The notes beneath the pieces are model-generated. The model had not been told where the DNA came from and did no database searches. It saw only the letters and a list, made by a program, of their open reading frames with translations. Positions 30,111 through 30,316 of a stretch of 64,000 bases of DNA are shown here, piece by piece. This DNA comes from a virus. Lineage: Duplodnaviria; Caudoviricetes. Numbering within the stretch: the stretch's first letter is position 1; each line of letters starts with the position of its first letter. Made by a program: the position numbers and the translations under genes. Location of the stretch: IMG/VR virus record IMGVR_UViG_3300033067_002287, positions 971 through 64,970 of that record, one strand, 5' to 3'.

Positions 30111-30316
30111 TTAAAATAAGACGTCCATCGCGCACAGTAATGTGTGAGGAAACTCGCGTAATCGTTGCTTAATTTGGGAGAACTAAAATGTTCGTTTGTA
30201 CCAAAGAGGATTAAACTCAAATTTGCTTAGGTGGTGAGCAAGCCTATAATAGCATGGTCTAGAGGACTAGTTAAATGATGGACTAGATACAGAAACGCGG
30301 TTATGACTTATTTTAA
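30111..30316 (+). ncRNA. rnpB: Minimal RNase P RNA
   Basis: P1 TTAAAATAAG/CTTATTTTAA; P2 GTCCATC/GATGGAC; P3 GCACA-GTAA-TGTGT; P4 GAGGAAAC-T-CGCGT / ACAGAAACGCGGTTAT; conserved GAGCAAG and AGTTAAATGA. Confidence 0.85.

Follow-up and report, generated by a model that had tools for sequence, protein, structure and literature searches.

A 202-nt RNA encoded at positions 30113-30314 (+ strand) of a 64,000-nt stretch of viral DNA (positions 971 to 64,970 of the IMG/VR record IMGVR_UViG_3300033067_002287, hereafter the window) is, with a probability of roughly 0.7, a functional, miniaturised bacterial type-A ribonuclease P (RNase P) RNA, which would be transcribed with a phage tRNA array, pair with the RnpA protein of the host and trim the 5' leaders of precursor tRNAs (pre-tRNAs). 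RNase P RNA is, to our knowledge, a universal ribozyme, and the specificity domain (S-domain) of its bacterial form is thought to be needed to read the tRNA elbow. The mini RNA keeps helices P1-P7, the pseudoknots of P4 and P6, and P15-P17 with the GGU of loop L15, with P18 missing and almost the entire S-domain gone. Homology, architecture, purifying selection, genomic context and the apparent sole use of the same form in one bacterial lineage carry this reading, and they lead us to expect catalysis, a partnership with RnpA and co-transcription with the tRNAs. A first-pass annotation, made from the letters of the window, had already proposed a phage-encoded, strongly reduced RNase P RNA that has lost most of its S-domain, which is borne out by a covariance-model alignment, a family of more than 110 members, covariation and the phage context. 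The family is not restricted to phages, a point absent from that annotation.

As aligned, the layout of the mini RNA is that of a bacterial type-A catalytic domain (Table 1). Its 5' half runs through P1, P2, P3, GAGGAAA with the 5' strand of P4, the 5' strands of P5, P6 and P7, a short hairpin that varies, a conserved single strand and the 3' strands of P7 and P5. The 3' half continues with a J5/15-like stretch, the 5' strands of P15, P16 and P17, the P17 loop holding the 3' strand of P6, the 3' strands of P17 and P16, GGU, the 3' strand of P15, a junction, and the 3' strand of P2, ACAGAA and the 3' strands of P4 and P1. The P1-P2-P3 frame is present, the 3' strand of P2 lying between J15(18)/2 and J2/4 (88-95% of cells paired). 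P15 leads straight into the junction ahead of P2 without a P18, and P8-P14 with their T-loop-binding junctions are absent, leaving P7 and one hairpin. Since P18 docks on P8 of the S-domain, as described in the available text of PMC12974513, the joint loss of both is coherent. The same text describes P7, P10 and P11 as a stack embracing the T stem, of which the retained P7 and hairpin may be a remnant. Folding this stretch gives a minimum free energy (MFE) of -52.7 kcal/mol, at z = -2.56. The first-pass annotation had listed P1, P2, P3 and a compensated P4, all of which are found in the sequence (8, 7 and 6 bp, and P4 with its bulged U), and its estimate of about 75 nt from the 5' strand of P4 to GAGCAAG comes to 76 nt (30160-30235). 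The motifs GAGGAAA and ACAGAA flank P4. GAGCAAG (30236-30242) is not the J5/15 motif; it lies in the P17 loop as the 3' strand of the P6 pseudoknot, and the J5/15-like stretch is found at 30213-30222.

Neither Rfam at its gathering thresholds, applied to the window, nor a cmscan E-value search over 701 nt of it returned an RNase P match. With a search space of 226 nt, the archaeal model RF00373 matched end to end at 34.6 bits (E = 1e-8), with 87 S-domain model positions deleted. The first-pass annotation had named the lack of a covariance-model alignment of the catalytic core as a refutation, and this check does not refute it. As cmscan lists only the best match per clan, the score of the archaeal type-T model itself is hidden. 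For the GC-rich members of the family the best model is RF00010 (class A). One of them, L222, aligned to it globally at 82.5 bits (gathering 100; E = 7.7e-26) with only two large deletions, one removing 110 S-domain positions and the other the 24 positions that make up P18 in the alignment. When RF00010 was searched against the window's own record, which is 39% complete, it gave 0 matches at E <= 10, and no separate S-domain piece was seen.

Relatives were sought with sequence patterns and with two covariance models, R1 being built from a single sequence and R2 from nine sequences with nested helices only (no P4, no P6). A strict pattern of conserved regions CR-I and CR-V with P4, requiring six of six complementary variable pairs, occurred once in 86 sources, namely in the window, and never in shuffles. 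BLAST of the window RNA and of the member L207 against 50,697 phage records gave no match, and 80 neighbourhoods of HAD_SAK_2 homologues (±10 kb, 1.47 Mb) held no homologue by R1 (best non-self 12.1 bits) or by the strict pattern. An exact 16-nt CR-I/P4 motif occurred at five loci in viral contigs, every one a coincidental match within coding sequence, and was rejected. Searching with a degenerate pattern (CR-I, a gap of 119-149 nt, CR-V) yielded at least 127 matches in at least 118 viral loci, and among the 127 matches listed P4 complementarity was bimodal, with 120 sites forming 0-5 of six pairs, as by chance, and seven homologues forming all six. Each of these seven has a different P4 sequence and aligned over the full length of R1 with a score of 41.6-74.9 bits; neither of two mismatched controls was matched. 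A tighter pattern then returned 22 viral loci, 13 loci in species-representative genomes and at least 120 metagenome loci. R2 scored all 23 viral sources at 84-198 bits, nine of the 13 genome loci at 92-134 bits and, among the matches listed, all but two of 84 new metagenome representatives (82, with 76-173 bits). For L289 and L351, which the P4 filter let through, R2 gave no match at E <= 1e-8.

In sum, more than 110 distinct relatives were obtained: 20 viral ones including the window, nine in metagenome-assembled genomes (MAGs), at least 82 from metagenomes and two in huge phages from GenBank. The latter are 'uncultured phage' genomes of 642,428 and 595,163 bp, reached by BLAST from one member, whose RNAs score 118.3 and 109.1 bits; one of the two has a variant CR-I outside the scan patterns. 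Because the census is bound to fixed motifs, such variants escape it and its counts are lower bounds. Members measure 192-248 nt in the curated set, and the median in the metagenome set is 204 nt (among the matches listed), the shortest being cut by a contig end. The core features are kept across members from 31% to 68% GC. On one metagenome contig (L315, minus strand) two adjacent R2 matches at 1-137 and 200-409, one of them cut by the contig end, may represent a tandem duplication. An uncultured archaeon MAG contains a 211-nt archaeal RNase P RNA (L227, 1169-1379) that passes RF00373 gathering at 95.5 bits; this short archaeal form is unrelated to the phage family (R2 34 bits).

The helices were evaluated in a curated set of 29 distinct members and in a second set of the window plus 83 matches from 82 metagenome loci, no metagenome match having been used for R2. 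In the curated set 91.8% of cells are paired, compared to 63.3% in shuffles (0/500 as high) and 33-41% in slid controls; the second set gave 91.7% (among the metagenome matches listed), compared to 63.7% and 33-43%. The covariation scores were 0.684 observed, 0.173 shuffled and 0.07-0.10 slid for the curated set and 0.645, 0.159 and 0.07-0.10 for the second one, and 50 of 60 pairs show both-sided changes in the curated set. Both alignments were made to follow the nested helices in the model, yet the P4 and P6 pseudoknots, which lie outside it, are 98.7% and 95.6% paired in the curated set. The value of 100% for P4 in the second set reflects its own pre-selection; among the unfiltered metagenome matches listed, 109 of 120 form all five variable P4 pairs and 11 form four. 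The low pairing of P15 (63-65%) is partly due to register shifts. The GGU of L15 is found in 104 of 106 members though it is part of no scan pattern. Taken as aligned, these patterns show purifying selection on the mini RNA. They also bear on the idea of an inert relic, a decaying piece of a captured host rnpB carried along with tRNA genes. The scores below Rfam thresholds and the large deletions would suit such a relic, but more than 110 distinct members with the same deletion boundaries, tightly bounded lengths and compensatory changes in every helix leave it next to no chance; the covariation effectively refutes it.

The nine MAG members bear the labels Gemmataceae, Gemmatales or Planctomycetia in seven cases. 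An eighth, on a contig of 2.6 kb, has the label Opitutaceae, and the ninth is labelled Alcaligenaceae but by taxonomy placed in the family of MAG G006. None of the nine passes Rfam gathering. Their neighbours are ordinary cellular genes, such as those for an aldose epimerase, a 4-alpha-glucanotransferase, an asparaginase and a PAS histidine kinase, and the mini form in the Gemmataceae lineage is chromosomal. Most MAG members stand first in a run of tRNA genes; the tRNA following one of them in a Gemmataceae MAG (L230, 4797-4871) was read as tRNA-Thr with anticodon AGT, which is unusual in bacteria. Among 61 genomes of the family of G006, four carry the mini form by R2, and their only RF00010 match is this form itself (55-83 bits). 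Another 50 contain the full-size gene (RF00010 202-310 bits, no R2 match) and seven showed neither form. The full-size gene was hence detected in 0/4 mini carriers versus 50/57 of the other genomes, and assuming a miss rate of 7/57, failure to detect it in all four carriers would arise by chance about 2 times in 10,000. The genus of G006 has the mini form in all three genomes. RnpA was found in 5/5 carriers (87-101 bits) and 5/5 non-carriers (86-99 bits), and the two groups resemble each other in the span of the match and the length of the frame. A BLAST search with a Gemmataceae full-size gene against the five carrier MAGs gave no match, an empty answer that is uninformative.

The mini form therefore appears to be the only RNase P RNA in one Gemmataceae lineage, judging from these gene inventories, and its chromosomal location, the lack of a full-size gene alongside and the normal RnpA suggest that it is a working enzyme. 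The first-pass annotation had supposed that S-domain loss may suit substrates with degenerate tRNA arms; this is not needed, as the same mini form seems to serve in planctomycete cells. These data also weigh on a non-enzymatic decoy that would disturb tRNA maturation of the host by binding its RnpA or by competing for pre-tRNA. The RnpA-binding region, which is P2-P4 with its junctions, is kept and the phage encodes no protein subunit, as one would expect of a decoy. An inert RNA is incompatible with cellular use in the absence of a full-size gene, however, and a decoy has no need for P15-P17, the L15 GGU, the bulged U or the ACAGAA core, all of which persist over the whole GC range of the family. 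We consider it very improbable.

About half of the family members adjoin tRNA genes. A same-strand tRNA gene lies within 50 nt of 15 of the 29 curated and 41 of the 83 metagenome members (among the matches listed), and two curated and six metagenome members (among the matches listed) have tRNAs on both sides. In a complete phage genome (G002, 183,648 bp with terminal repeats) the mini RNA is located within a block of 26 tRNA genes. The mini RNA of the window would accordingly be transcribed together with the phage tRNA array and, given its flanking tRNAs, may be cut free from the array transcript by tRNA processing. The freed RNA is predicted to fold into the catalytic domain, made up of P1-P5, the two pseudoknots P4 and P6, and P15-P17 including the GGU in L15, and would then join the host RnpA protein, and the resulting enzyme would remove the 5' leaders of phage and probably also host pre-tRNAs and of tmRNA. 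The host protein must be assumed as partner, since none of the five phage records encodes RnpA. The first-pass annotation had likewise seen no rnpA in the window, and it had put forward a 49-aa basic ORF at 30821 as a possible partner; this ORF has no homologue in 112 other family loci and is not a conserved partner. The available text of PMC5839562 reports that the catalytic domain (C-domain) of the E. coli RNA alone cleaves with reduced efficiency, and PMC7191817 and PMC3579882, as far as available, describe archaeal type T as active though lacking most of the S-domain. This cleavage by the C-domain, the natural precedent of type T and the planctomycete data together argue for a working RNase P RNA that uses host RnpA.

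A different role would be that of an RNase P-derived ribozyme retargeted to narrower or other substrates, such as odd tRNA-like RNAs, tmRNA or phage mRNAs, which it would recognise by acceptor stem and 3' end only, instead of maturing tRNAs in general. The missing elbow-reading module of the S-domain fits this idea, as do a tmRNA in the window and two nearby tRNA-like RNAs that are not called as tRNAs (30483-30603 with an ACCA end, and 30681-30752). Most neighbouring tRNAs are ordinary ones (40-68 bits), however, and a bacterial lineage whose tRNA sets are ordinary seems to have this same architecture as its only RNase P RNA, which makes retargeting unlikely.

Several observations weigh against a functional mini RNase P RNA. 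The window stays far under Rfam gathering (34.6 vs 84 bits on RF00373). P15 is weak (63-65% paired); in the window it amounts to only 3 bp, and the MFE fold contains a local hairpin that competes with it. The invariance of the core motifs (33 positions in the 29 curated members) is partly forced, about 23 of the 33 positions being fixed by the scan patterns and saying nothing. The sequence was found in five sequencing runs, none of which is an RNA run. RnpA (PF00825) was detected in 0/5 phage records, one of them complete, by a search that found it in 10/14 reference genomes as control. Only about three of the 23 tRNA genes of the window encode CCA, so the contact between GGU and CCA may not apply to primary transcripts. 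Among the cellular carriers, MAG G007 (10.6 Mb) holds the mini form plus a partial full-size match of 179 bits, and the Opitutaceae-labelled G009 has a full-size gene (226 bits) plus the mini form on its 2.6-kb contig; both could be mixed bins. The carriers are without exception MAGs whose completeness is not stated, and scoring covered a subset of the first-look candidates. G007 also contains, on the minus strand of one contig (L357, G007:C117), tandem sub-threshold RF00010 matches at 1501-1864 and 2112-2535 (90.2 and 65.8 bits) that resemble complementary halves. The upstream half comprises P1-P3, CR-I and the 5' part of the S-domain and the downstream half the rest of the S-domain, P15-P18 and CR-V, so the pair may be a split or insertion-bearing RNase P RNA.

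A tree of 111 sequences (180 columns, IQ-TREE quick, with a midpoint root for drawing only) placed the nine MAG and 11 GC-rich metagenome sequences in one cluster (support 83; inner clade 97) and viral sequences in both major clades (support 95 and 95). The closest relative of the window among the members found shares 72% identity. R2 does not span full-size type-A RNAs, so the tree has no outgroup and shows neither the source of the family nor the direction of transfer between phage and cell. As a tentative scenario, to which we assign somewhat less than even odds, the mini RNase P ribozyme might have arisen and diversified in large phages as a mobile module of a tRNA array with its own processing enzyme, the first known virus-carried catalytic RNA of the translation-supply chain, before one such gene took over from the full-size rnpB native to a Gemmataceae lineage, which would now run on a phage-derived, S-domain-less RNA with an ordinary RnpA.

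Table 1. Elements of the mini RNase P RNA and the adjoining tRNA gene in the window. Two percentages separated by a slash refer to the curated and the second set.
Element	Positions	Strand	Remarks
Whole mini RNase P RNA, 202 nt	30113-30314	+	RF00373 global 34.6 bits; R2 198.2 bits, sole R2 match in the window
P1	30113-30120 with 30307-30314	+	8/8 pairs in the window; 94.2% / 95.2% paired; all 8 pairs change on both sides
P2	30123-30129 with 30277-30283	+	7/7 pairs in the window; 89.1% / 89.7% paired; first pair mostly open in relatives
P3 hairpin, GUAA loop	30131-30136 with 30141-30146	+	6 bp; 93.5% / 88.2% paired; length variable among members
CR-I-like GAGGAAA and P4 5' strand	30146-30159	+	fits RF00373 and RF00010 consensus
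P4	30151-30153 and 30155-30159 with 30295-30302	+	U30154 bulged; 98.7% paired; 5/8 pairs compensatory
P5	30160-30163 with 30209-30212	+	100% / 99.1% paired; 4/4 pairs change on both sides
P6 pseudoknot	30165-30171 with 30235-30241	+	3' strand in P17 loop; 95.6% / 97.5% paired; 4/7 pairs compensatory in alignment A7
S-domain remnant	30173-30205	+	P7, one hairpin and conserved single strand
P7	30173-30177 with 30201-30205	+	98.6% paired in both sets
Hairpin inside P7	30180-30183 with 30190-30193	+	96% paired
J5/15-like stretch and P15 5' strand	30213-30222	+	cmscan aligns it to ...GCAAG..AAAUAG.. consensus
P15	30216-30218 with 30262-30264	+	64.6% / 62.7% paired
P16	30224-30227 with 30251-30254	+	87.6% / 84.8% paired
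P17 and loop L17	30228-30231 with 30243-30246	+	79.0% / 82.7% paired; P16-P17 arm is 30224-30254
L15 GGU, 3' side of loop	30256-30258	+	aligns to RF00010 consensus GGU; same place in 104/106 members
J15/2 junction (...UAG.UAAAU)	30266-30276	+	in the place of J18/2; conserved; no P18
J2/4 with ACAGAA and P4 3' strand	30284-30302	+	ACAGAA 30289-30294, P4 3' strand 30295-30302; CR-V-like; aligned by cmscan
tRNA-Cys gene	30323-30397	+	8 nt 3' of the mini RNA; opens next block of the tRNA array; ARAGORN and Rfam

The record behind the window is linear, 64,970 bp long and about 29% GC, with a CheckV completeness of 39%. Among its products are a DNA polymerase of family B, a chaperonin resembling GroEL, a TROVE/Ro-like protein and RNA-repair domains; the polymerase shares at most 33.6% identity with that of any deposited phage, the top match being Microcystis phage Mel-JY01. 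ARAGORN and Rfam place 23 tRNA genes and one tmRNA in the window, all on the + strand. The mini RNA occupies the non-coding interval that separates the stop codon (30117-30119) of an upstream 81-aa ORF from the tRNA-Cys gene. This ORF and the 49-aa one, considered as cofactors, have no tblastn match in 112 other family loci and belong to no Pfam family. No terminator-like site was found on the + strand between 27690 and 31500, and a promoter scan (31 found vs 20.7 expected) was uninformative. Further genes lie within the tRNA array on the + strand, including four HNH endonuclease ORFs (28925-29344, 31134-31619, 35442-36023 and 39378-39860), a HAD_SAK_2 RNA-repair domain (29405-29884), an R2K ATP-grasp (40227-41051) and the TROVE protein (41104-42693).

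The array also contains less regular RNAs. In the uncalled RNA of about 121 nt at 30483-30603 (+), an acceptor-like stem of 7 bp is closed by the encoded 3' end ACCA, and a small hairpin with a GAAA loop stands in the place of the T arm; it has neither an ARAGORN call nor an Rfam match. As the TROVE/Ro-like protein is encoded 11 kb downstream, this is possibly a Y-RNA-like or tRNA-like RNA, and a likely RNase P substrate. At 30681-30752 (+), a tRNA-like sequence combines a sound acceptor stem and T arm with aberrant D and anticodon regions; it is called by neither ARAGORN nor Rfam at gathering and agrees with a remark on degenerate tRNAs in the first-pass annotation. A weak 62-nt tRNA match (33.2 bits) lies at 36917-36978 (+), and ARAGORN gave the tRNA at 37965-38038 (+) a two-base anticodon. 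The phage tmRNA at 43573-43848 (+) matches RF00023 at 71.7 bits, with AEENNFALAA as the tag peptide from ARAGORN. In three other phage loci with a mini RNA we noticed tRNAs with the anticodon CTA, i.e. amber suppressors (L175 6112-6186, L207 3246-3318 and L210 4924-4996), whose presence hints at TAG recoding in those phages.

A ribozyme would with this family join the translation-related genes carried by large phages, and its low scores account for surveys at Rfam thresholds that report no RNase P RNA in such phages and in some planctomycete MAGs. As far as the available text of PMC8172020 goes, only tRNAs and a tmRNA were detected in megaphages. In the literature searched, subscription-only papers and supplements not being covered, we found no description of a phage-encoded or a bacterial S-domain-less RNase P RNA, so an earlier description is possible. 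The available text of the 2026 phylogenetic survey PMC12974513 does not use the word 'phage', that of the huge-phage paper PMC7162821 does not use 'RNase P', and the 2024 review PMC11143913 and the P Finder survey PMC7191817 describe no such RNA in the parts available. The sole natural form without most of the S-domain in this literature is archaeal and works with several proteins. A natural minimal enzyme of bacterial type, apparently sufficient with a single RnpA, makes the role of the S-domain in vivo directly testable, and at about 200 nt it offers a compact scaffold for structural work.

Compared to known systems, the mini RNA shares with bacterial type A (RF00010) the order of P1-P7, a P4 with bulged U, CR-I and CR-V, the J5/15-like stretch, P15-P16-P17 with the L15 GGU, and the pseudoknot between L17 and P6. 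It differs in its size of about 200 nt compared to about 370-640 nt for the full-size matches obtained here, in the lack of P18 and P8-P14, in scoring below gathering and in being carried by phages. Archaeal type T, as described in the available text of PMC3579882 and PMC7191817, is likewise a natural RNA about 200 nt in size, with the catalytic domain retained and most of the S-domain missing, and it was likewise overlooked by Rfam models that predate its description. Type T, however, has an archaeal build with archaeal proteins and a P2 of 3 bp, whereas the mini RNA has a P2 of 7 bp, bacterial P15-P17 and P6, and coexists with bacterial RnpA; its S-domain loss is independent of that in type T, a case of convergence. 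The engineered C-domain-only RNA of E. coli (PMC5839562, available text) is similar in being a bacterial catalytic domain without S-domain. It is a laboratory construct, whereas in the natural family P18 is lost as well and P7, a single hairpin and the pseudoknot P6 are retained. The RNase P RNAs of the candidate phyla radiation (PMC8172020, available text), finally, are bacterial, fall under Rfam thresholds and lack P12-P14 and P18 as well, but they are cellular rather than viral, keep much of the S-domain and in some cases lack the GGU or P15.
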